Assembly: GCF_000027125.1 (NCBI RefSeq) | Contig: NC_017626.1 | Direction: 5' to 3' (one strand) | Source: Escherichia coli 042 | GTDB taxonomy: Bacteria > Pseudomonadota > Gammaproteobacteria > Enterobacterales > Enterobacteriaceae | Length of the DNA: 64,000 nucleotides | Shown here: in pieces, positions 34,511 through 52,465 of the stretch | Numbering within the stretch: position 1 is the stretch's first letter | Layout of the letters: each line of letters opens with the position of its first letter | Notes under the pieces: generated by a model | Told to the model about the DNA's origin: nothing | Database searches by the model: none | What the model saw: only the letters and a program-made list of their open reading frames with translations | Position numbers and translations under genes: made by a program

Positions 34511-35326
34511 CTACGAATTGATATGTTCCTTGCTGTAACGCCGCTTCCACGCTGCTGGCGTTAAACCAGTGTGTTTGCGAAAAATCTGCCGGAAATAGCC
34601 AACGTCATTAAACCCGCACAACGCCGCCACTTCCGTGAGCGATCGCGCTTCGCTAATTAACAGCTTTTCGGCTTCGCGCACTCGCTGGCGATGGATTGCT
34701 TCTGTTAACGTCAGATGAAACACCCGCCGATAGACGCGCCCAAGATAATCGGCATTGCAGTACAGCTCGCGGGCTAAAAGCGCCGTGGAAAGCGGGCGAT
34801 GATATTGCGTGCGGATCAGTTTCTGCGCTTTCCAGGCAAGCGTGGTACCTGCGGCATCGGCCTGTTCATCAAGACGCGCGTCACGGGTGAGTTGCTGCAA
34901 AATCAGCAGCACAATAAACTCCAGCGCCGGAGTGCGCTGATGCTTTTCCTGTTCGCTTAAGAACTGGCGAAACAGGGCCACCAGCGCCTGCGGATCGGCA
35001 ACCTTCGTTTGTTGCGGCACGCTAAGATGAGTGAGCCAGCGCGGGTCGCTATCCGGCGCTTTAACCTCAAAATGCAGCCAGTAAAATTTGAGATCGGCGG
35101 GAAAATCCTCTACCCCAACATGCTGTCGGTTCGGCCAGAGTAATAAACTCTCTCCCGCATCGACCAGAAATATCCGCTCTTCTTCCTGAATCGCTAATCG
35201 ACCTTTTTCGACAAAGATAATTTCCCATGACTCCAGCCGCCTTGCCGGATGCCTCCCTACGCCACGGGAAATAAATAATCCACCATTTTGCACTTTAATC
35301 GGTAACGTCATGGATAATTCGAGCAT
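34511..35326 (-). CDS. AraC-family transcriptional regulator (N-terminal cupin-like sensor, C-terminal double HTH)
   Basis: 271 aa; C-terminal AraC signature region (...DYLGRVYRRVFHLTLTEAIHRQRVREAEKLL...FNDVGYFRQIFRKHTGLTPAAWKRR). Not part of the recalled K-12 gene order between sgbE and yiaT. Confidence 0.85.
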   Translation of the reverse strand: MLELSMTLPIKVQNGGLFISRGVGRHPARRLESWEIIFVEKGRLAIQEEERIFLVDAGESLLLWPNRQHVGVEDFPADLKFYWLHFEVKAPDSDPRWLTHLSVPQQTKVADPQALVALFRQFLSEQEKHQRTPALEFIVLLILQQLTRDARLDEQADAAGTTLAWKAQKLIRTQYHRPLSTALLARELYCNADYLGRVYRRVFHLTLTEAIHRQRVREAEKLLISEARSLTEVAALCGFNDVGYFRQIFRKHTGLTPAAWKRRYSKEHINS

Positions 35327-35348
35327 TGATATGTAATTTCCCGCTTAT

Positions 35349-35402
35349 TCATTAATGATTAAACACATTACCTTTTGATTATTAATCAAAAACATTAATT
35401 TC
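35349..35402. promoter_or_regulatory. Palindromic AT-rich sites in the divergent AraC / transporter promoter region
   Basis: TCATTAATGA (35349-35358) and TTGATTA-T-TAATCAA (35376-35390) palindromes plus further ATTAAT repeats; seen directly. Confidence 0.4.
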
Positions 35403-35551
35403 ACCTGATCCAATTCACACTTTTAAATTCAGGTCGGAATCGTCACCTTTTTTTACTCTTTTCTCGCCTTGTTGATATTCCCGTTCACGGCAGAATTAAT
35501 CATGTCATTGCAATAAAACTAAAAATTGCACCCTATTCACGAGGAATATCT

Positions 35552-36952
35552 ATGACCTCTACACCGATTACTACCGCTGATATCGCTAAAGGTAAAATTG
35601 ACGATGCGTTATCTGTACGGGAAAAAATAGGCTACGGCCTGGGTGACGCAGGCGGCACCGTAATAACTTGCCTGATCATGAACTTTCTCACCTTTTTCTA
35701 CACCGACGTTTTTGGCTTAACTCCGGCGCTGGTCGGCACGCTGTTTATTGCACTGCGCGTGTTTGATGCCATCTCCGACCCGGTGATGGGCGTCATTGCC
35801 GACCGGACGCAAAGTCACTGGGGGCGCTTTCGTCCGTGGCAGTTATGGATTGCCATTCCCATCGGCATTATCGGCATCCTGACGTTCACCGTGCCAGATG
35901 CCAGCATGGGAGTAAAAATCGCCTGGGCGTTCGGCACTTACCTGCTCCTTTCAGTCGGTTATACCGCCATCAACGTGCCGTACTGCGCGCTGATCAACAC
36001 CATGACCACCCGCCACAATGAAGTGATCTCCTGCCAGTCCTGGCGATTCGTTCTCTGCGGTGTAGCGGGATTTCTGGTTTCGGTAGGCTTACCGTGGATG
36101 GTGGATCTCTTCGGTCAGGGTAATGCCGCGCGCGGCTATCAACTGGGCGTCGGCGTGCTGTGCGCCATCGCTGTGGTGATGTTCCTGTGCTGTTTCTTCT
36201 GGGTTCGTGAACGGGTACCACTCTCCACAATGGGGAAATTTACCCTGCGCGAACATCTTGCCGGGCTGCGAAACAACGACCAACTGCTGCTGATGCTGGT
36301 CATGTCTTTCCTGCTGATTAACGTCTTTAATATTCGCGGCGGTGGGTATATGTACTTCATTACCTACGTCTTACAAGGCAGTACGGGCTACACGTCGCTG
36401 TTCTTCACTATGGTCACCTTCGCCTCCATTATCGGCTCGGTGATTGTCAGCCCGTTAACGCGACGTTTCGATACCGTCAAAATTTATTACTACACCAACC
36501 TGCTCCTCGCTTCACTGGCGGTGTTGATGTGGTTCCTGCCCTCCGGCCCGGCTTATCAAACGCTGTGGCTGGCGGTGATCCTCGGTAATGGCGTGATTCT
36601 TGGCTTCACATTGCCACTGCACTTCTCATTGATGGCCTTTGCCGATGACTACGGCGAGTGGAAAACCCGCGTACGTTCTTCCGGCATGAACTTCGCCTTC
36701 AATCTGTTTTTCATCAAACTGGCCTGGGCCTCCAGCGCCGGGATCATCAGCCTGCTGTTTATTTTTGTCGCCTACCAGCCAGGCGTAGAAAACCAGACCG
36801 CCAGTTCGCTTGGCGGGATCGCGGCGATGGAAACATTGCTGCCTGCGCTGTTCCACCTGCTGCTGGCGATGGCGATCCGCTTTTGCAAACTCAATAACCC
36901 TATGATGTCACGCATTGCTAGCGACCTGCGTCAGCGTCATGTACAGCCTTAA
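35552..36952 (+). CDS. GPH-family (glycoside-pentoside-hexuronide) sugar:cation symporter
   Basis: 466 aa, 12-TM MFS-like; N-terminal GYGLGD...G and [18 protein letters not shown] motifs typical of MelB/YicJ/YihO-type GPH transporters. Confidence 0.85.
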
Positions 36953-36962
36953 GGAGCACAAG

Positions 36963-38933
36963 ATGAACATTTCGGAAGTCGATCTGCATAAACTGACGGT
37001 CAGCGATCCGTTCCTCGGTCAGTACCAACAACTGGTCCGCGACGTGGTGATTCCTTATCAGTGGGATGCCTTGAACGATCGTATCCCAGAAGCGGAACCC
37101 AGCCATGCGATTGAAAACTTTCGCATTGCCGCAGGACTGCAAGACGGTGAATTTTACGGGATGGTGTTTCAGGACAGCGACGTCGCCAAATGGCTGGAAG
37201 CGGTAGCCTGGTCGCTGTGCCAGAAGCCGGATGCCGAACTGGAAAAAACCGCTGACGAGGTAATCGAACTGGTCGCTTCCGCCCAGTGCGAAGATGGCTA
37301 TCTCAATACTTACTTTACGGTAAAAGCGCCCGAAGAACGCTGGAGCAATCTGGCGGAGTGTCATGAACTTTACTGCGCCGGTCATCTGATTGAAGCCGGA
37401 GTCGCCTTCTTCCAGGCCACGGGCAAGCGGCGCTTGCTGGAAGTGGTTTGCCGTCTGGCCGATCATATCGACAGCGTATTTGGTCCAGGTGAAAGTAAGT
37501 TACACGGTTATCCTGGTCACCCGGAAATTGAACTGGCACTAATGCGCCTGTATGAAGTGACCGAAGAGCCGCGCTACCTGGCGCTGGCGAACTATTTTGT
37601 CGAACAGCGTGGTGCGCAACCGCACTATTACGACCAGGAATATGAAAAGCGCGGGCAGACCTCGCACTGGCACACCTACGGCCCGGCGTGGATGGTGAAA
37701 GATAAAGCCTACAGCCAGGCGCATTTACCCATCGCACAGCAACAAACCGCCATCGGACATGCAGTACGCTTTGTATATCTGATGACTGGCGTCGCACATC
37801 TGGCGCGTTTAAGTCACGATGAAAGCAAGCGTCAGGATTGCCTGCGGCTGTGGAACAATATGGCCCAGCGTCAGTTATATATTACCGGCGGCATTGGCTC
37901 ACAAAGCAGCGGCGAAGCGTTCAGCAGCGATTACGATCTGCCGAATGACACGGTATACGCCGAAAGCTGTGCTTCCATCGGCCTGATGATGTTCGCCCGG
38001 CGAATGCTGGAAATGGAAGGCGACAGTCAATATGCCGATGTGATGGAGCGCGCACTGTACAACACCGTGCTCGGCGGCATGGCGCTGGATGGCAAACATT
38101 TCTTCTATGTGAATCCGCTGGAAGTGCATCCAAAAACGTTAAAATTCAACCATATCTACGATCACGTTAAGCCGATCCGCCAGCGTTGGTTTGGTTGCGC
38201 TTGTTGTCCGCCAAATATCGCCCGCGTGCTAACCTCGATTGGTCATTATCTCTACACGCCGCGTGAAGATGCGTTGTATATCAACATCTACGCAGGAAAC
38301 AGCATGGAAGTGCCGGTAGAAAATGGCACGCTGCGTCTGCGGGTTAGCGGAAACTATCCGTGGCAGGAGCAGGTGACGATTGCGGTTGAATCGCCCCAGC
38401 CGGTGCGTCATACGCTGGCTTTACGTCTGCCGGACTGGTGCACACAGCCGCAGATCATATTGAATGGGGAAGAGGTCGGGCAGGATATTCGTAAAGGGTA
38501 TTTGCACATTACCCGCGAATGGCAGGAGGGCGATACGCTGAATCTGACTTTGCCGATGCCGGTACGCCGCGTTTACGGTAACCCTCAGGTGCGTCACGTC
38601 GCCGGAAAAGTGGCGATTCAGCGCGGCCCGCTGGTGTATTGCCTGGAACAGGCCGACAACGGCGAGTCACTGCATAACCTGTGGCTGCCCGCCGATGCGC
38701 CATTTACGACATTTGAAGGCAAGGGATTGTTCCGCCATAAGATCTTAATCCAGGCTCCGGGTTACCGGTATGAACAGAGCAATCCAGAGCAGCAACCGCT
38801 GTGGCATTACGACAGCGCGCCAGCCAAACGCCAGCCGCAAACCCTGACCTTTATCCCGTGGTTTAGCTGGGCCAACCGGGGTGAAGGCGAAATGCGGATC
38901 TGGGTGAATGAGGAAAAGCATTGCCATCCGTAG
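36963..38933 (+). CDS. Glycoside hydrolase family 127 (DUF1680) protein, putative beta-L-arabinofuranosidase-like
   Basis: 656 aa from ATG 36963 with AAGGAG SD 7 bp upstream; Cys-rich segment WFGCACCPPNIARV resembles the recalled zinc/cysteine active-site region of HypBA1-type GH127 enzymes. Family assignment from memory. Confidence 0.7.
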   Translation: MNISEVDLHKLTVSDPFLGQYQQLVRDVVIPYQWDALNDRIPEAEPSHAIENFRIAAGLQDGEFYGMVFQDSDVAKWLEAVAWSLCQKPDAELEKTADEVIELVASAQCEDGYLNTYFTVKAPEERWSNLAECHELYCAGHLIEAGVAFFQATGKRRLLEVVCRLADHIDSVFGPGESKLHGYPGHPEIELALMRLYEVTEEPRYLALANYFVEQRGAQPHYYDQEYEKRGQTSHWHTYGPAWMVKDKAYSQAHLPIAQQQTAIGHAVRFVYLMTGVAHLARLSHDESKRQDCLRLWNNMAQRQLYITGGIGSQSSGEAFSSDYDLPNDTVYAESCASIGLMMFARRMLEMEGDSQYADVMERALYNTVLGGMALDGKHFFYVNPLEVHPKTLKFNHIYDHVKPIRQRWFGCACCPPNIARVLTSIGHYLYTPREDALYINIYAGNSMEVPVENGTLRLRVSGNYPWQEQVTIAVESPQPVRHTLALRLPDWCTQPQIILNGEEVGQDIRKGYLHITREWQEGDTLNLTLPMPVRRVYGNPQVRHVAGKVAIQRGPLVYCLEQADNGESLHNLWLPADAPFTTFEGKGLFRHKILIQAPGYRYEQSNPEQQPLWHYDSAPAKRQPQTLTFIPWFSWANRGEGEMRIWVNEEKHCHP

Positions 38934-42907: not shown

Positions 42908-44446
42908 TCAGAACAGCCCCAACGGTTTATCCGAGTAGCTCACCAGCAAGCACTTGGTTTGCTGGTAATGCTCAAGCATCATTTTGTGGGTTTCGCGGCC
43001 AATGCCTGATTGTTTGTAGCCACCAAACGCCGCATGTGCCGGGTAAGCGTGATAACAGTTGGTCCACACGCGCCCGGCCTGAATGCCGCGCCCCATCTTA
43101 TAGGCCAGATTACCGTTGCGGCTCCAGACACCCGCGCCCAGGCCATATTGCGTGTCGTTCGCCAGCTCCAGCGCTTCTTCCATCGTTTTGAAGGTGGTCA
43201 CCGCCAGCACCGGGCCAAAAATCTCCTCCTGGAACACGCGCATATTATTCTGACCAAACAGAATCGTCGGTTCGAGGTAGTAGCCGTCTTTCAGTTCGCC
43301 TTCCAGCAGCTTGCGCCGCCCGCCGGTGAGCACATCTGCGCCCTCTTTTTTACCAATATCAATGTAGTTGAGGATGGTTTCCAGTTGCCCGTGCGAAACC
43401 TGCGCGCCCATTTGCGTCACGCTGTCGAGTGGGTTACCGCTACGAATGCTTTCGACACGGCGGATGGCGCGTTCCATAAAGCGTTCGTAGATAGACTCCT
43501 GCACTAAAGCACGGCTTGGACAAGTGCAAACTTCGCCCTGGTTAAAGGCAAACAGTGCAAAGCCTTCCAGCGCTTTATCGAAAAAGGCATCTTCTTCATC
43601 CATCACATCAGCAAAGAAGATATTTGGGGATTTGCCGCCCAGCTCCAGCGTCACCGGAATAATGTTTTGCGTGGCGTACTGCATAATTTGTTGGCCCACT
43701 TCCGTTGAGCCGGTAAACGCCACTTTGGCGATGCGTTTCGAGGTCGCCAGATATTCGCCAATTTCCCCACCAGCGCCGTTAACCACGTTCACCACGCCCG
43801 GCGGCAGTAAATCACCGACGATTTCCATTAGCAGCAGTACAGAAAGCGGGGTAAGACGTGCGGGTTTCAGCACCACACAGTTGCCCGCCGCCAGCGCGGG
43901 AGCCATTTTCCAGCTCGCCATCAGCAGCGGGAAGTTCCACGGAATAATCTGCCCCACCACGCCTAACGGTTCGTGGAAGTGATAAGCCACAGTTTCGCTA
44001 TCCACTTCACTAATACCGCCTTCCTGCGCCCGAATACACGAGGCAAAATAGCGAAAATGGTCAATTGCCAGCGGCACATCAGCAGCACTGGTTTCGCGAA
44101 TGGGTTTGCCGTTATCCCAGGTTTCAGCGGTCGCTAACAGTTCGAGGTTCTGCTCCATCCGATCGGCAATCTTAAACAGAATCGCCGCGCGATCCTGCAC
44201 CGAGGTATGCGCCCATTTATCTTTCGCTTTATGCGCGGCATCCAGCGCCAGATCGATGTCTCGTTTGCCCGAAGACGCCACTTCGCACAGTAGCTGCCCG
44301 GTCACCGGCGTCAGGTTCTGGTAATAGTCGCCATCGGCAGGGGCTACCCATTCGCCGCCGATAAAGTTGTCGTAGCGGGCTTTTAACTTAAGAGGAAAAC
44401 CATACTCGCCGGGCTGAACACGTGCTGAAGGGGGATTGTTGGTCAT
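42908..44446 (-). CDS. aldB: Aldehyde dehydrogenase B
   Basis: 512 aa from [17 protein letters not shown] with AGGAG SD; ALDH family; track ORF over-extended by 30 codons. Confidence 0.96.
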
Positions 44447-44553
44447 GATCGTCTCCTTGCGGTGTGAGGTATAACAAGGGTAGACGTGACTGGCGAAATC
44501 TTCGCCAGTCGGTAACAGCTTTACGACGGCTATCACGAATTTACGGGCAAGGA

Positions 44554-45849
44554 CTACAGCGGGTAATGTGCGACGTACACGGCTTGCTGGTCATTAATTT
44601 TCTTCTCTTGCGCAAACCCTTCTTTAACAATCGTCCGTAAATCAGCTCGAGCCGTATTATCAGAGACGCCCAGGCTCGCGCTAATTTCAGCAACTGTGTA
44701 CTCTTTCCCCGGATTGGCGAGCATCACATTCAGGAGCGTTACCTGGCGAGGATTCAAGCGTTTAAGCACGCCAGAGCTAAACAGCACACTATCGAATTTT
44801 GCGCTTCGTTGCATAATTTCATCAATATGCTGCTGCCAGTTTTGCAAAGCACGTTTAATGACACCCGCCTGATAATCAAGGAAATAAGTCAGATCCATAC
44901 CATCTGATTCAGTGTACTGGCAGCTGGCGGCATATTTGACCGGTGCAGCATGAAGCAAACGGCTGATGGAAATATATTTAAAGACATCGTAGCCCGATTT
45001 CAGCATATACCAGTAAAACAGTGCCCGACTGGTGCGCCCGTTGCCATCGCGAAATGGATGTTCATGGGCCAGCATAAAATGCAGAATGCAGGCACGGATT
45101 AACGGGTGAATATACCCTTCATGGCTGTTTAACCACTGGCAAACTTTTTCCAGCCGTTCCAGCAACAATGCCGCAGCGGGCGGTTGGTGCACAATATTGC
45201 CGTCATAGTCGGCGATCACAACATCATCTGTTTCACGAAATTCTCCCGGACGATATTTCGCGTCATTGATTCCACCCATACCAATGGCATGTAACTGGCG
45301 AATAAGCGCAGTCGTCAGCGGTTCTGCGAGTAAGTGCGGAATTTCCGCCATCAGCCGGGCATTTCCCGCAATCATATGCTCGTCTTCAGTGCGTGGCGAC
45401 CGCCCTGTTTCCAGCATTTTTCTCGCCACCAGCGTTGTAGTATTCGCACCTTCCAGCTGGGAGCTGGTGATCGGCTCTTCCAGGCGTAACTGGCTTAACT
45501 CGGCTCCGGCCCCGCGTAACCGTTCAGTCTGATCTTTCAGCGCCAGCGCGGTAGCACGTTTGTCGACAAGCTCGCACGCTTCTGCAATCACCGGGGTAAT
45601 GTTGAATCCGGCCTGTTCACCCGCTTCATTGCAATAATTAATTCGTTGGATCGCCGCGTTGCGCGCCAGACGGGTAAGCGTCCACGCCACATCGACGTTT
45701 TCTCCTTTTTTGATGCGGTACTGCAACTCATCAAAAGGTAGATAACGTCCTTTTTCATCGGTAACCCGGTTAAAGCGCAGGTGGGCCTGGAGTTCCTCAC
45801 CCGATAAGTGTGATAAAGGAATAAGTCCGGGAGGTGATTTGATAGCCAT
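44554..45849 (-). CDS. Fic-family protein (class II, internal inhibitory helix) with C-terminal wHTH-like domain
   Basis: 431 aa; canonical Fic active-site motif [12 protein letters not shown]; upstream inhibitory-type motif SSQLEG ([S/T]xxxE[G/N]); C-terminal segment [39 protein letters not shown] resembles a winged HTH. Not in the recalled K-12 aldB-yiaY gene order. Confidence 0.85.
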
Positions 45850-45854
45850 GTGCT

Positions 45855-45935
45855 TATCTCAAAAAAGCGCAATATTGAGATAGTGTATAGCAGGAAAGAG
45901 AAACTATCTCAAAAATCGCAAATTTTGAGATAGTT
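45855..45935. promoter_or_regulatory. Two palindromic operator-like sites upstream of the Fic gene
   Basis: TATCTCAA-N12-TTGAGATA (45855-45882) and perfect 13-bp arms AACTATCTCAAAA-N8-TTTTGAGATAGTT (45902-45935), immediately upstream of the Fic start codon. Confidence 0.5.
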
Positions 45936-45940
45936 TAAAA

Positions 45941-45965
45941 AATGGCTGACAATTAGACAGCCATT
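45941..45965 (-). terminator. yiaY rho-independent terminator
   Basis: Minus-strand reading gives hairpin atggctg-tctaattgt-cagccat followed by TTTTTT. Confidence 0.65.
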
Positions 45966-45978
45966 GTGGGAATGATGA

Positions 45979-47130
45979 TTACATCGCCGCGCGATAAATC
46001 GCCATAATTTCTTCGTGAGTTGCCTGGATCGGGTTAGTAAAGCCGCAGGCATCTTTCAGGGCATTGGTTGCCAGCACTGGAATATCTTCTTCTTTCACGT
46101 TCAGGTCACGCAGGCCTGCCGGGATATTCACTTTCTTCGCCAGTTCACGGATGGCATTGATGCACGCTTCTGCGCCTTCCGCGTCATTTTTGCCTGTCAC
46201 GTTAACGCCCATGGCAGCAGCACAGTCACGCAGACGCGCAGCAGCGACTTTGCTGTTGAACACCTGAACGTGTGGCAGCAGAACGGCGTTACATACACCG
46301 TGCGGCAGATTGTAGAAACCGCCCAGCTGGTGCGCCATCGCATGAACATAACCCAGAGAAGCGTTGTTGAATGCCATGCCAGCGAGGAACTGGGCATAAG
46401 CCATTGCTTCACGCGCTTTAGCATTGCTGCCATCTTCAACGGCTAACGGCAGATTTTCGGCAATCATGGTCACCGCTTTCAGTGCGCAAGCGTCAGTGAT
46501 CGGCGTGGCGGCAATAGAAACATACGCTTCGATAGCGTGCGTTAAGGCATCCATACCCGTTGCGGCGGTCAGTGACTTCGGCATACCGACCATCAGAGAT
46601 GAGTCATTGACAGAAAGCAACGGAGTTACATGTTTATCAACAATCGCCATTTTGATATGACGCGCTTCGTCAGTGATGATGCAGAAACGGGTCATTTCAG
46701 AGGCCGTACCCGCCGTGGTATTGATGGCGATCATCGGCAGCTGCGGTTTTGCAGAGCGGTCAACGCCTTCGTAATCGCGAATATCGCCACCATTGGCTGC
46801 CACCAGCGCAATACCTTTTGCGCAGTCGTGTGGAGAACCACCGCCTAAGGAAATCACGCTATCGCAATTATTTTCTTTAAGTAATTTCAAACCTGCAGCG
46901 ACGTTTTCCGTGGTGGGGTTAGGTTGGGTGCCATCATAAATAACGCTAAAAATATTGCGTTCTTCCAGTGCTTTTTGCACATCACCCGCCATACCCAATT
47001 TCGTTAACATATTGTCAGTGACAATTAAGGTACGGGTAAATCCATAATCTGCCATCATATTCATTGCATCATTCAATGAATCAGCACCAATAACATTCAC
47101 GGAAGGAATAAAAAAGGTTGAAGCTGCCAT
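45979..47130 (-). CDS. yiaY: Iron-containing alcohol dehydrogenase YiaY
   Basis: 383 aa [19 protein letters not shown]...; Fe-ADH family. Confidence 0.93.
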
Positions 47131-47227
47131 AACACACTCCTGAAAGTGTAAAAAAGGGCGGGCAGCTTACTGAGGATTTTCATTCAAAAATATGATCAGT
47201 ATTATTGATTATCAAAATTAATCTAAT

Positions 47228-47267
47228 AAAAAGCACATTGTATTCATTAAACAATGTGCTTTTTTTA
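47228..47267 (-). terminator. selAB operon rho-independent terminator (bidirectional hairpin)
   Basis: Perfect 10-bp stem agcacattgt / acaatgtgct with 9-nt loop, flanked by A-run and T-run. Confidence 0.7.
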
Positions 47268-47319
47268 AATTCATAAGAATTTTGTATTAATTTATTTTAA
47301 AACTTAATTAATCATTTCC

Positions 47320-49164
47320 TTATTTTTCCGGAAATAATAATGCGTCGCGCAATAAATGATCATTTCCACGACGACGCGTAAAGCCAATGCGGTCAAAATA
47401 TTCCAGAATTTGAATTGCCAGTTTTCGACCAACACCTAAGCGATCGCGGAAATCCGCCGCGCAGGTTGAACCACACTCCTGATCGAGATCGCGGATCATA
47501 TTGGCAAACTCGACAATCCGATCGTTACGGTAATAACGATCTTTAACGATCGCGGTAATAATTCCTTGCTGCGCCGCCTGGCGTAGCGTCAGGCGCATTG
47601 CCTGCTCGTCGGTTCCCGTCTCTTTTGCCAGATCACGCACCCACCACGGCTCGTCACCAAACAGCGGCTCTGCTTTTTGCCAGATGGCCTGCTGCTCTTC
47701 GCTGAAGCCCGCTTTATGATCCGGCAGATGCAGCCAACCGTGATGACTGAGGATGTCGCCGCTTTCGCGCATCTTTTCAATCAGCAACAGTACCAGCGCT
47801 TCATCTTCCATTGGCAACGCCATACGTCGCAGACGTTCGCGCCCAGGACCAGGTTCATCGCGATGTTGCTCATGATAAGTCGCTAATGTGTCGAGAATTT
47901 TCCGCTGCCAGCGGGCGGCAACCGGCGCATTCAACAAGCTATAACCAGCCTGAATATAGCCAGGCTGTTGCAATAGTTCGCGCATCCCTTCGCCGTTGAG
48001 CTGCCGTGCCCAGGCGAAATCGGCAAGGTTAACCGCGCCGCGTTCCAGATGAACAGATAACGCATCGGCATCGCTCTGCGCTCGTGCAAGAGACGCCAGC
48101 CATTGCAGATATTCCGGCTTACGCTTACCGCGACGCGGCGGGTTAAGCATTACCACACGCGCCCCCGCCAGCGTGTTGCGGGCCGAGATATCGCGCAACA
48201 CTAAGCGATCGTTATCCGCCAGCCACAGCGGCGTGTCGAACACCAGCTCGGCAAGGCTATCTTCCAGCAGCGAAACGCGTCCCGTAACGTGGCTGGCGGC
48301 GTGGTGAATATGCAGCGGCTGCCACTGGGTCAGCGGCGTATGGGTTTGAAGCTCGACAATCACCCGCGTGAACGGCTCTGGCGGCACATCGGCAAGCAGC
48401 CAGTCGCCACGGTTAATCTGCTCTTTTTCCGCATCACCCGCGATGTTAAGCGCGATACGCTGCCCGGCATGGGCGGTTTCTGTTGGCTGGTTTTGTGCAT
48501 GCAGCGCACGCACGCGCATCGGTTTATTTACACCAGTCAGCCATAGTGAATCGCCTACCTTCACTTCCCCGCTTAACGCCGTACCGGTGACGACCAGCCC
48601 GGCACCTTTTACGGTAAATGCACGGTCGATCGCGAGGCGGAAACTATGTTGGCTGGCGTGTTCACGTTCTGGTAACTGAAGCAAATGCTCGCGCAGGGCA
48701 TCAATTCCCCGACCTTCGGTTGCTGCGGTGATAAACAGTTTTGCCTCAGCAAAACCGTATTCCCGCAGCACCTCCTTTACCTGGCGTTCAACCTCATCAA
48801 CACGCGCTTCGTCCACGCGATCGGCTTTGGTCAGCGCCACTGTCAGCATCGGGTTACCGGTCAGCTGCAAAATCGCCAGATGCTCACGGGTCTGTGCCAT
48901 CACGCCGTCATCGCACGCCACCACCAACAGCGCGTGATCGATACCACCAACGCCAGCCAGCATGTTGGAAAGAAACTTTTCATGACCGGGTACGTCGATA
49001 AAACCAGGCACACGGCCATCCGGCTGCGGCCAGTAGGCATAGCCGAGATCGATGGTCATGCCGCGCTTTTTTTCTTCCGGCAGACGGTCGGCATTTACGC
49101 CAGTAATCGCCTGCAATAAGGTTGTTTTGCCGTGGTCAACGTGTCCGGCAGTCGCAATAATCAT
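47320..49164 (-). CDS. selB: Selenocysteine-specific elongation factor
   Basis: 614 aa, N-terminal GTPase motifs ([18 protein letters not shown]) and C-terminal wHTH SECIS-binding region. Confidence 0.96.
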
Positions 49165-50649: not shown

Positions 50650-51258
50650 TCAAGCCTTTGGCGGTTCGGTGCGAGCAAAACTTTCGCGGCTAAACAGGTT
50701 TTCGACCAGTTTGACTAAGTGTGGGCGGTCGACACACCAGCCTGGCGCAACGCGGCGGAAATTGAGATATCCGACGGCACAGGCAATGGCGATAGTCGCC
50801 AGATTGACCGTATCGGTTTTGAGCGTGCCATCGACCAGATATCCTTCCAGCACATCCAGACTGCGGTTGATTTTCTCCCGCTGGCGTAACAATTCATCTT
50901 CAGACTGCTGCGCCGCCGGACGCGCCTGTTCACGCACCGATACCAGCCCGGCATCCATAATGCCATCCGCCAGCGCCTCAATTTTGCGCACCCGCAACGA
51001 CTCCAGCGGATCGCGCGGCAACATCGCCGGAGCGACATTCATTAATTCAATATATTCAGCGATGATCGGCGAATCAAACCAACATTCGCCCTCTTCGGTC
51101 ACCAGCACCGGCACTTTCCCTAACGGGTTAAATTGCGCCACGCCGTTGTCCGCGTTATAGGGCAGTTCATTAATAAATTCGAAAGTTATGCCCTTTTCTA
51201 ACAACAGAATAGAAAGTTTGCGTACAAACGGGCTGGTGTAGCTACCGACGAGTTTCAT
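50650..51258 (-). CDS. yibF: Glutathione S-transferase-like protein YibF
   Basis: 202 aa [28 protein letters not shown]... GST N-terminal thioredoxin fold. Confidence 0.92.
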
Positions 51259-51328
51259 GCCGAGTCCTTTGTGCGAGGAAAAATATCAGTATGGCTCAGG
51301 CTCACGCAAAACACAGGTGATATAAGTC

Positions 51329-52465
51329 TCAATGATCCAAATAAAGATAATGCATCCAACTGGTCATTCTTAGCAGCACCTTCCGCATCACCGAAACATG
51401 GCTGAAATGGTCGGAGTAAACTGCCACCTGGGCGTAAATGCCGTCGGGTAAGGCATCGATATCATCGTTAGGGTCCAGTTCAATGGTTCCCAGCACACCG
51501 TCCGTGCCGGGCACGACCGTTAATGATTGCAATACCCCCTGCGCCTGATAAGAACCGCCTGGCACGACAGGTAAAATACTGGTCAGTTTGCCGTGGAACA
51601 CCTGCCCAGGTAGCGCGTTAAACACCACTTCCGCATCATCGCCGGGTTTCAGACGTAACAGCGAGTTTTGCCGAAATTGGGCGACAATTTGCCGTTTTTG
51701 CTCGGGGATGAAAACCATCACCGGACGCAACGGCAAGGCAGCTGCGTATGTACCTGGGCGGATCAGTACCTGAGTAACGTAGCCATTGCTCGGCGCGCGA
51801 ATGACAGTCTGCTCAAGGTTATATTTTGCTTCAGTAAGTTGCGCTCTTAAGCTCACAATCTGCGACTGCTCGCCGTTAACCATACTGTCGAGCTGGCTCT
51901 GGATCTGCGCCTGCTCCGCCACCGAGCCTTTCACCAGCGCATCCTGCGCGAGGAAATTTTGCCGCGCATCGTCGATGTCACGTTCCGAGAACGGATTCAC
52001 CGCCGCCTGGCTGCCTTTCAGGTAACGTTGATAATTTTTAAACAGACGGTCGCGCTCCGCTGAAACCTGGGTGGTGTTGGCCTGCGCTTCAGTGAGCTGC
52101 GCGCGCAGCGTCTTTATATTATGCGTCGCCGTCATCAGGTCAGCCTGAAGTCTGTCAACTCGCGCCTGGTAACGGACCGGGTCGAGTTTAAAAAGCACCT
52201 CGCCCTTTTGAATAAGCTGATTATTTTTGTCAGTGACTTCAGTAACAATTCCCGTCACCTGTGGCGTGATGGGGATCGCTATCACTGCCTTTTGCGCGGT
52301 AAAAGTGTAAGGGTGATTGTAGTTCATCAACAAAATCAAACCACTCACCAGAAACACGCCTCCCAGCGCCGCCGTCGCCAGCGTCCACTGATTTACCGGA
52401 ATGCGGAAGATTTTAAAGACCGCCCACGCCAGCGCCACGTAAGTTAAAACGATCAATAGATCCAT
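51329..52465 (-). CDS. yibH: HlyD-family membrane fusion-like protein YibH (paralogue of YiaV)
   Basis: 378 aa; by eye roughly three quarters identical to the YiaV ORF at 40898-42034, identical termini (MDLLI... / ...HYLYLDH). Confidence 0.9.

Follow-up and report, generated by a model that had tools for sequence, protein, structure and literature searches.

The aldB–yiaY interval of Escherichia coli 042 carries a gene, here called fic, whose product is probably a self-repressed class II Fic enzyme with a C-terminal winged helix-turn-helix (wHTH), acting as a conditional growth-arrest toxin of the defence or conflict kind. The gene lies in a 64,000-nucleotide stretch of contig NC_017626.1 (assembly GCF_000027125.1), which is the window analysed here and of which a preliminary description had been made from the letters alone. 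Its protein joins an intact Fic catalytic core to an inhibitory helix in the same chain, and two conserved palindromes enclose a promoter-like element directly upstream of its start codon. Comparison of Escherichia genomes indicates that fic is ancestral in the genus and has been lost by deletion in about 70% of E. coli, including K-12.

Fic core, inhibitory helix and winged helix

The protein has the architecture of a class II Fic enzyme followed by a C-terminal wHTH (Table 1), and its sequence predicts self-inhibition. The preliminary description had reported an intact Fic motif in a minus-strand open reading frame (ORF) of 431 codons, and both the motif and the Pfam match to the core domain confirm this. 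Its H, F, D, G, N, G, R and R positions are unchanged across 30 homologues with identities as low as 39%, as is the segment SSQLEGA. SSQLEG precedes H264 by 130 residues in the same chain and aligns with the inhibitory-helix region of FICD. The built-in inhibitor that had been proposed, and with it the class II assignment, is thus confirmed by the presence of S129–G134 in cis and by its invariance in these homologues.

The class I toxin–antitoxin layout of FicT/FicA and VbhT/VbhA, in which a separate adjacent gene encodes the antitoxin, was not found here: the motif is in cis, and the sequence upstream of fic contains the yiaY terminator and then both palindromes but no ORF. E. coli K-12 Fic/YhfG and FicT/FicA are class I toxin–antitoxin systems that have the Fic fold and arrest growth via AMPylation. 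There, a second gene, that of the antitoxin, provides the inhibitory helix, whereas the 042 protein carries it in cis and has no partner gene on either side.

An AlphaFold (AF2) model of the single chain, made with an alignment of 30 homologues (predicted local distance difference test 87, predicted template-modelling score 0.81), ends in helices 367–378, 386–393 and 397–409 and strands 413–417 and 423–427, the helix-helix-helix-strand-strand order of a winged HTH. Pfam HTH families match residues 361–414 weakly, with DeoR the best (E 0.003), and Foldseek aligns the whole Fic plus wHTH body over 341–363 columns to 8cil, 3zcn and 7xux. The model, the alignments and the weak Pfam matches agree with the winged HTH that had been suspected in the C-terminal tail. 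Within it, N398-T399-A400 of the recognition helix is invariant. Model confidence drops exactly at residues 133–135, that is, around the inhibitory Glu133, and helices 86–98, 101–110 and 114–128 stand at the position equivalent to the N-terminal dimerisation helix of relatives.

Ahead of these helices is an N-terminal domain of about 85 residues, for which no match to any known fold was found. In a profile search of 1.84 billion representative proteins, this domain was restricted to the N-terminus of Fic proteins of about 430–500 residues or evident fragments of them, and it therefore marks a separate, uncharacterised subfamily. The database names of subfamily members are all generic; in the 100%-identical stretch of E. 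coli BEC1-S17-ESBL-09, for example, RefSeq labels the identical coordinates 'Fic family protein' (WP_000985748.1).

By sequence, the protein belongs to the published Fic–wHTH class II architecture, yet is distant from every characterised member. The best structural matches are CbFic2 (8CIL), SoFic (3ZCN/3EQX), Dde_2494, a Mycobacterium marinum Fic and 7XUX, all of which have a Fic core and then a wHTH. Among PDB sequences the best matches are FICD first, then SoFic and further bacterial Fic proteins. The PADLOC profile for SoFic (PDLC03963) matches residues 96–427 at profile positions 30–351 of 361 (E 2.3e-43, 147 bits, with no PADLOC threshold applied). The preliminary description thus overstated the novelty of the architecture, which is already in print for SoFic, CccR and CbFic2 (bioRxiv 10.64898/2026.07.09.737422; PMC9755527; PMC10628234) and is matched by the PADLOC profile.

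SoFic of Shewanella oneidensis (SO_4266; PDB 3EQX/3ZCN) and EcSofic of E. coli H397 (PDB 9VJC) share the class II order of N-terminal inhibitory Glu motif, Fic core and C-terminal wHTH. The structural match to SoFic has a TM score of about 0.6, but identity is about 18%. SoFic is reportedly an anti-phage defence system, said to go back to Millman 2022. It AMPylates and deAMPylates EF-Tu, binds its own promoter no more than 100 bp from the start codon, and has been described as a constitutive deAMPylase and proposed as a growth-rate tool (bioRxiv 10.64898/2026.07.09.737422). EcSofic is toxic, dimeric, described as anti-phage, and neutralised by a 47-residue protein encoded downstream (PMC12249575). 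Compared to SoFic, EcSofic, CccR and CbFic2, the 042 protein is about 60–70 residues longer at the N-terminus, which puts its catalytic histidine at 264 rather than 192–198 (194–198 for SoFic and EcSofic), and SoFic, CccR and EcSofic are all without its ~85-residue N-terminal domain.

Two further comparisons bear on the enzymatic switch. CbFic2 of Coxiella burnetii (CBU_0822; PDB 8CIL; PMC10628234) is the best Foldseek match (E 2.8e-12) and is a bifunctional AMPylase/deAMPylase with a C-terminal HTH, in which DNA binding switches between the two activities; unlike what we propose here, it acts on the host as an effector, modifying histone H3, and its DNA binding is non-specific; identity is 21%. 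Over the Fic core and the inhibitory helix, the best match by sequence is human FICD/HYPE (PDB 4U04, 6I7G; E 3e-12), the paradigm of the Glu-dependent AMPylation/deAMPylation switch, but FICD is a eukaryotic membrane protein of the endoplasmic reticulum with TPR repeats, no wHTH and BiP as its target.

Operators and promoter upstream of fic

The stretch from the terminator of yiaY to the start codon of fic holds two palindromes, O1 and O2, 50 bp apart, and the −35/extended −10 element that they bracket looks like a promoter (Table 1). For the operator comparison we used 74 orthologous loci from a protein scan of 100,044 species genomes, in which at least 588 stretches match the Fic protein. 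We counted NNNTCAA-N12-TTGANNN 43 times in 12.2 kb of upstream sequence (165 nt around the start codons of the 74 orthologues) versus 12 times in 592 kb of flanks, an enrichment of about 170-fold. Its spacer is almost always 12 nt and its positions are fixed at about −30 and −80. The same succession, from the distal site through a −10-like box to the proximal site at the ATG, recurs in Enterobacterales, Pseudoalteromonas, Marinomonas, Alcanivorax, Pseudomonas and the cyanobacterium Leptolyngbya, with the −10-like element directly 5' of O2 in the orthologues too.

Mismatches between operator arms comprise 11 G:T and 13 A:C, with no G:T excess, and the proximal palindrome folds weakly as RNA (−8.8 kcal/mol, z −1.6); this is the behaviour of a palindrome in DNA. 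A reading as riboregulator or RNA hairpin was rejected because of this weak fold and the absence of a G:U bias in the mismatches. Also rejected was a 'terminator-like' flag that a scan had placed on O1, since the true terminator of yiaY lies a short way upstream and fic orthologues in unrelated surroundings keep the palindrome. An Rfam scan of 44300–46100 at E ≤ 1 gave no matches.

The half-sites vary together with the first residues of the recognition helix: CACCTCAA is found at loci with S-E-NTAR and TTTCAA at loci with A-Y-NT. The N-T-A core of the helix and the TCAA core of the operator are invariant across the loci compared. This covariation is suggestive only, as the loci are not phylogenetically independent.

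Because the operators are conserved and CccR and SoFic offer precedents, no functional statement about this protein is better supported than autorepression through its wHTH, for which sequence and analogy together give strong support. What had been offered as a possibility, that the gene is autoregulated, thereby gains the backing of two conserved palindromes around a promoter-like element.

The same evidence bears on whether the protein might be mainly a transcription factor, with a Fic domain that senses nucleotides or is vestigial and with genes other than its own under control. PDB 3EQX was indeed deposited as a 'Fic domain containing transcriptional regulator'. We nevertheless think this very unlikely, since none of the catalytic and inhibitory residues varies even between deeply diverged homologues, which argues for a kept enzymatic function, and since the operator motif, looked for in the 592 kb of flanks, is nearly confined to the gene's own upstream region.

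CccR of Yersinia pseudotuberculosis (YPK_0951; PMC9755527) raises a different alternative. It is likewise a class II Fic plus HTH protein; as a dimer it represses its own promoter by way of an inverted repeat that overlaps the −35 and −10 boxes, and it is toxic via AMPylation, its target being Thr8 of FtsZ. A CccR-like protein would be exported by a type VI secretion system (T6SS), AMPylate FtsZ in competitors as an interbacterial effector or signal, and serve as a transcription factor in kin cells. The shared architecture and the inverted-repeat operator at its own promoter fit such a role. However, CccR is T6SS-linked, whereas no T6SS, VgrG/PAAR, Rhs or immunity genes were found beside fic, whose neighbours are yiaY, aldB and selB. 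The operator geometry also differs: CccR has one inverted repeat with 10-bp arms and a 26-bp spacer, in place of two sites with 8-bp arms and 12-bp spacers. CccR has no extra N-terminal domain, and identity to 7xux is 17%. We consider this alternative highly improbable.

Two observations concern the other end of the gene. A perfect 10-bp stem with a 3-nt loop, GACTGGCGAA-GAT-TTCGCCAGTC, lies at 44488–44510 between the fic stop and the aldB start and has no T tract; it is kept in K-12, and so belongs to the aldB leader. No intrinsic terminator can be recognised for fic, so that in carriers transcription may run on into aldB.

Table 1. Positions of the fic gene, its protein domains and motifs, the upstream elements and the K-12 deletion in the window
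Feature	Position	Strand	Details and basis
fic-family ORF, 431 aa, ATG start	44554..45849	(-)	TAG stop at 44554-44556
Fic core domain, aa 177-281	45007..45321	(-)	Pfam PF02661, E 8.6e-19, model positions 1-92 of 93
Catalytic Fic signature, HxFx[D/E]GNGRxxR, H264-R275	45025..45060	(-)	From sequence
Inhibitory-helix motif S129-S-Q-L-E133-G134, [S/T]xxxE[G/N], class II-defining	45448..45465	(-)	From sequence
C-terminal winged HTH, aa ~361-431	44557..44769	(-)	AlphaFold, Foldseek, weak Pfam; PADLOC SoFic profile reaches aa 427
Family-specific N-terminal domain, aa 1-~85, three helices and a beta-hairpin	45595..45849	(-)	
Proximal operator O2, TATCTCAA-N12-TTGAGATA	45855..45882		Ends 5 nt before ATG; right arm holds the only Shine-Dalgarno-like purines
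Distal operator O1, perfect 14-nt arms, AAACTATCTCAAAA-N8-TTTTGAGATAGTTT	45901..45936		Core TATCTCAA-N12-TTGAGATA at 45905-45932
Putative sigma-70 promoter	45884..45912	(-)	-35 TTGAGA (45907-45912) inside O1 right arm, 17-nt spacer, extended -10 TG-n-TATACA (45884-45889) abutting O2
yiaY intrinsic terminator, AATGGCTG-N9-CAGCCATT and T run	45937..45965	(-)	Conserved in K-12; insulates fic from yiaY
Segment missing in K-12-type genomes, ~1.37 kb	44559..45926		K-12 junction CAACTATCTC/TGTAACCC; junction alignment

Deletion scars and the age of the locus

The neighbours of fic, all in the same orientation, are aldB (42908–44446) and yiaY (45979–47130), followed by selB. An intact fic is present in 1572 of the 5426 complete E. 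coli genomes (29%), O157:H7 and a Nissle 1917 derivative among them, and is missing between aldB and yiaY in K-12 W3110 and C600, which bears out the absence from K-12 given in the preliminary description. The gene is accessory and uncharacterised, and not a characterised core gene.

Genomes without fic are not simply empty at this site. The short scar of K-12, ...TTTTTCAACTATCTC/TGTAACCCTTGCCC, joins the left half-site of O1 to the last five bases of the ORF (TGTAA, as in the O157 allele), and this short scar is found in 3159 genomes. A long scar in 575 fic-less genomes retains the whole 36-bp distal operator O1, followed by TAGTTATCTC/TGTAA. The K-12 allele is the long-scar allele minus 37 bp between TNTCTC repeats, and the two scars suggest two nested deletions. 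Because the O1 palindrome accompanies fic orthologues in unrelated contexts, its presence in fic-less E. coli means that the gene was once there.

In the type strain of E. albertii, fic (94% amino acid identity) has the same operators and lies directly upstream of aldB. The synonymous divergence (dS) of fic between this species and E. coli, 0.27–0.33, matches the 0.35 of aldB. From the scar remnants in non-carriers and from this E. albertii gene with its aldB-like dS, we conclude that fic is ancestral in Escherichia and that K-12 is a deleted state. Sequence comparison also indicates that the gene is under purifying selection, with a dN/dS of 0.07–0.20 between alleles.

The preliminary description had instead seen a single-gene insertion, and a recent horizontal insertion into an originally empty aldB–yiaY spacer could be invoked for the patchy presence of fic and for its homologues on mobile elements elsewhere. 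This reading is hardly tenable: the 'empty' sites hold operator and stop-codon remnants of fic, the E. albertii gene sits beside aldB and has a similar dS, and we found no integrase, direct repeats, target duplication or other marks of mobility flanking the gene.

Several observations describe variation around the locus. In E. coli CP131_Sichuan, IS1A abuts yiaY and aldB through glyS is missing, a third, IS-mediated route by which the region has been lost. Only 2 of 5357 genomes are at least 99% identical over the fic region; the best-matching one, BEC1-S17-ESBL-09, is identical to 042 in fic and aldB (100%), with YiaY at 99.5% and SelB at 99.3%, which makes the two strains related but distinct. 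Between 042 and K-12, synonymous divergence peaks near fic (42908–49164; dS 0.21 in aldB and 0.15 in selB, with yiaY at about 5% nucleotide divergence) and falls to 0.03–0.07 in yiaV/yiaU/yiaT and yibF. This peak may reflect old linked haplotypes at a presence/absence polymorphism, or it may be ordinary recombination mosaicism, an option we keep because similar peaks occur at yiaO/lyxK and xylH.

The window differs from K-12 elsewhere too. Between the lyxK/sgb genes and yiaT, 34511–38933 encodes an AraC-family regulator (271 residues), a GPH-family sugar:cation symporter (466 residues) and a 672-residue aceric acid hydrolase-like protein, where K-12 has only annotated pseudogene fragments ('AraC family... 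partial'); this appears to be another locus at which K-12 is the deleted state. The genes yibF and yibH are 71 bp apart in 042 (50650–52465), whereas in K-12 about 8 kb with RhsA, yibA, yibG and Rhs fragments separates them; 042 lacks the RhsA element.

Genomic contexts, mechanism and role

Outside E. coli, fic occurs in contexts of several kinds. The Salmonella orthologue (70% identity) is cargo of an integrative conjugative element (ICE) with AcaB and TraG-like genes, and a Klebsiella homologue (49% identity) lies in a small satellite-like element with integrase, AlpA, Bro-N and DUF927-primase genes. A few homologues are on large plasmids. In phage genomes we found no full-length homologue, but a PHROG family does match. 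An IetA/IetS defence pair (AAA ATPase and S8 protease) is about 3 kb upstream of the Salmonella orthologue, within the conjugative-element cargo. In Pseudomonas syringae and Pseudescherichia, fic stands alone among housekeeping genes, in neither a defence island nor a mobile element. The P. syringae orthologue adjoins a gene for an iron-containing alcohol dehydrogenase (Pfam Fe-ADH), the family of yiaY, which is probably a coincidence. Toxin or defence modules that consist of one self-contained gene typically show such a mixture, although it is not decisive. A literature search on the locus (Fic with aldB and yiaY; SoFic with O157) found nothing specific.

We propose the following mechanism, in which DNA binding, dimerisation, AMPylation and deAMPylation, the toxic outcome and the biological role would follow those of characterised relatives. 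The Fic core holds every catalytic residue that AMP transfer requires. By analogy with SoFic, CbFic2 and FICD, the intramolecular inhibitory helix would put Glu133 in the ATP site, so that the resting enzyme would be a poor AMPylase and probably a deAMPylase. A wHTH dimer would bind both operators, covering the −35 box, start site and ribosome-binding site of its own promoter and keeping expression low. The ~85-residue N-terminal domain, ahead of the putative dimerisation and inhibitory helices, is the best candidate for recognition of a target or signal. Relief of inhibition would lead to AMPylation of an essential cellular protein and thereby to growth arrest. The gene would thus be a self-contained conditional toxin of the sort used in phage defence or in conflict between mobile elements.

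Judged by analogy with its relatives and by the mobile-element contexts elsewhere (the Salmonella ICE near IetAS, the Klebsiella satellite-like element and the plasmids), a conditional toxin in defence or genetic conflict is the most likely role. A number of points weigh against it. Within E. coli, fic is in neither a defence island nor a mobile element, its neighbours being aldB, yiaY and selB, which also sets it apart from SoFic. The protein scores 43.2 bits against the SoFic equivalog NCBIfam NF046030, far below the curated cut-off of 550, and its identity to characterised relatives is about 17–23%. Unlike EcSofic with AS1, the 042 locus has no small AS1-like gene downstream: a ~47-residue antitoxin would need 144 nt, and only 107 nt, comprising the K-12-conserved aldB leader, separate the fic stop from the aldB ATG, so that no such ORF is possible there. 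A consensus promoter scan did not call the putative fic promoter, whose −10 box ends in A and not T. Deletion or cloning of a PADLOC/DefenseFinder 'SoFIC' call in the E. coli B2 strain NILS69 gave no phage phenotype (PMC12409345), where the identity of that call with the 042 gene is not confirmed. Lastly, inheritance in Escherichia has been vertical for as long as that of aldB, and this, like the solo chromosomal genes of P. syringae and Pseudescherichia, fits a physiological regulator equally well.

Such a regulator is a serious rival, possible if less probable. It would tune growth under stress through reversible AMPylation and deAMPylation of a housekeeping protein (for example EF-Tu, as for SoFic), with the wHTH providing homeostatic autoregulation and possibly acting on other genes. 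The long vertical history at a fixed chromosomal site, the purifying selection and the solo contexts all suit this explanation, as does the description of SoFic as a constitutive deAMPylase and proposed growth-rate tool (bioRxiv 10.64898/2026.07.09.737422). The lack of a phage phenotype for the NILS69 'SoFIC' call (PMC12409345) would also speak for it, if that call is the 042 gene. On the other hand, about 70% of E. coli have lost the gene at no obvious cost, orthologues travel on an ICE, a satellite-like element and plasmids, and there are no conserved linked target or pathway genes.

A more far-reaching reading we hold to be rather doubtful. The 042 protein would found a distinct, widespread Fic–wHTH subfamily, whose defining marks are the novel N-terminal domain and an operator (TCTCAA-N12-TTGAGA, twice) that spans phyla and co-evolves, and would be maintained in E. 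coli as an ancient presence/absence polymorphism (29% intact, two nested scars, a divergence peak in the flanks). Its function would be conditionally useful, for example a phage- or stress-triggered AMPylation of an essential protein other than EF-Tu or FtsZ, with the N-terminal domain as sensor of the trigger.

The Fic–wHTH architecture was already known and the gene is routinely annotated; what is new is the finding that the event was a loss, by deletion in K-12, together with the deeply conserved two-site operator and the separate subfamily with its novel N-terminal domain. For annotation, this means that a 'SoFic defence system' called automatically in an E. coli genome may be a protein only distantly related to the validated SoFic. 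For the Fic–wHTH family, the locus offers a clean natural system, a one-gene module with a predicted operator and promoter, for which natural nulls (K-12, with its precise deletion scar) and carriers (O157:H7 and the Nissle 1917 derivative) both exist. Taken with the way in which it covaries with the recognition helix, the conserved operator would amount to a directly testable code of protein–DNA recognition.

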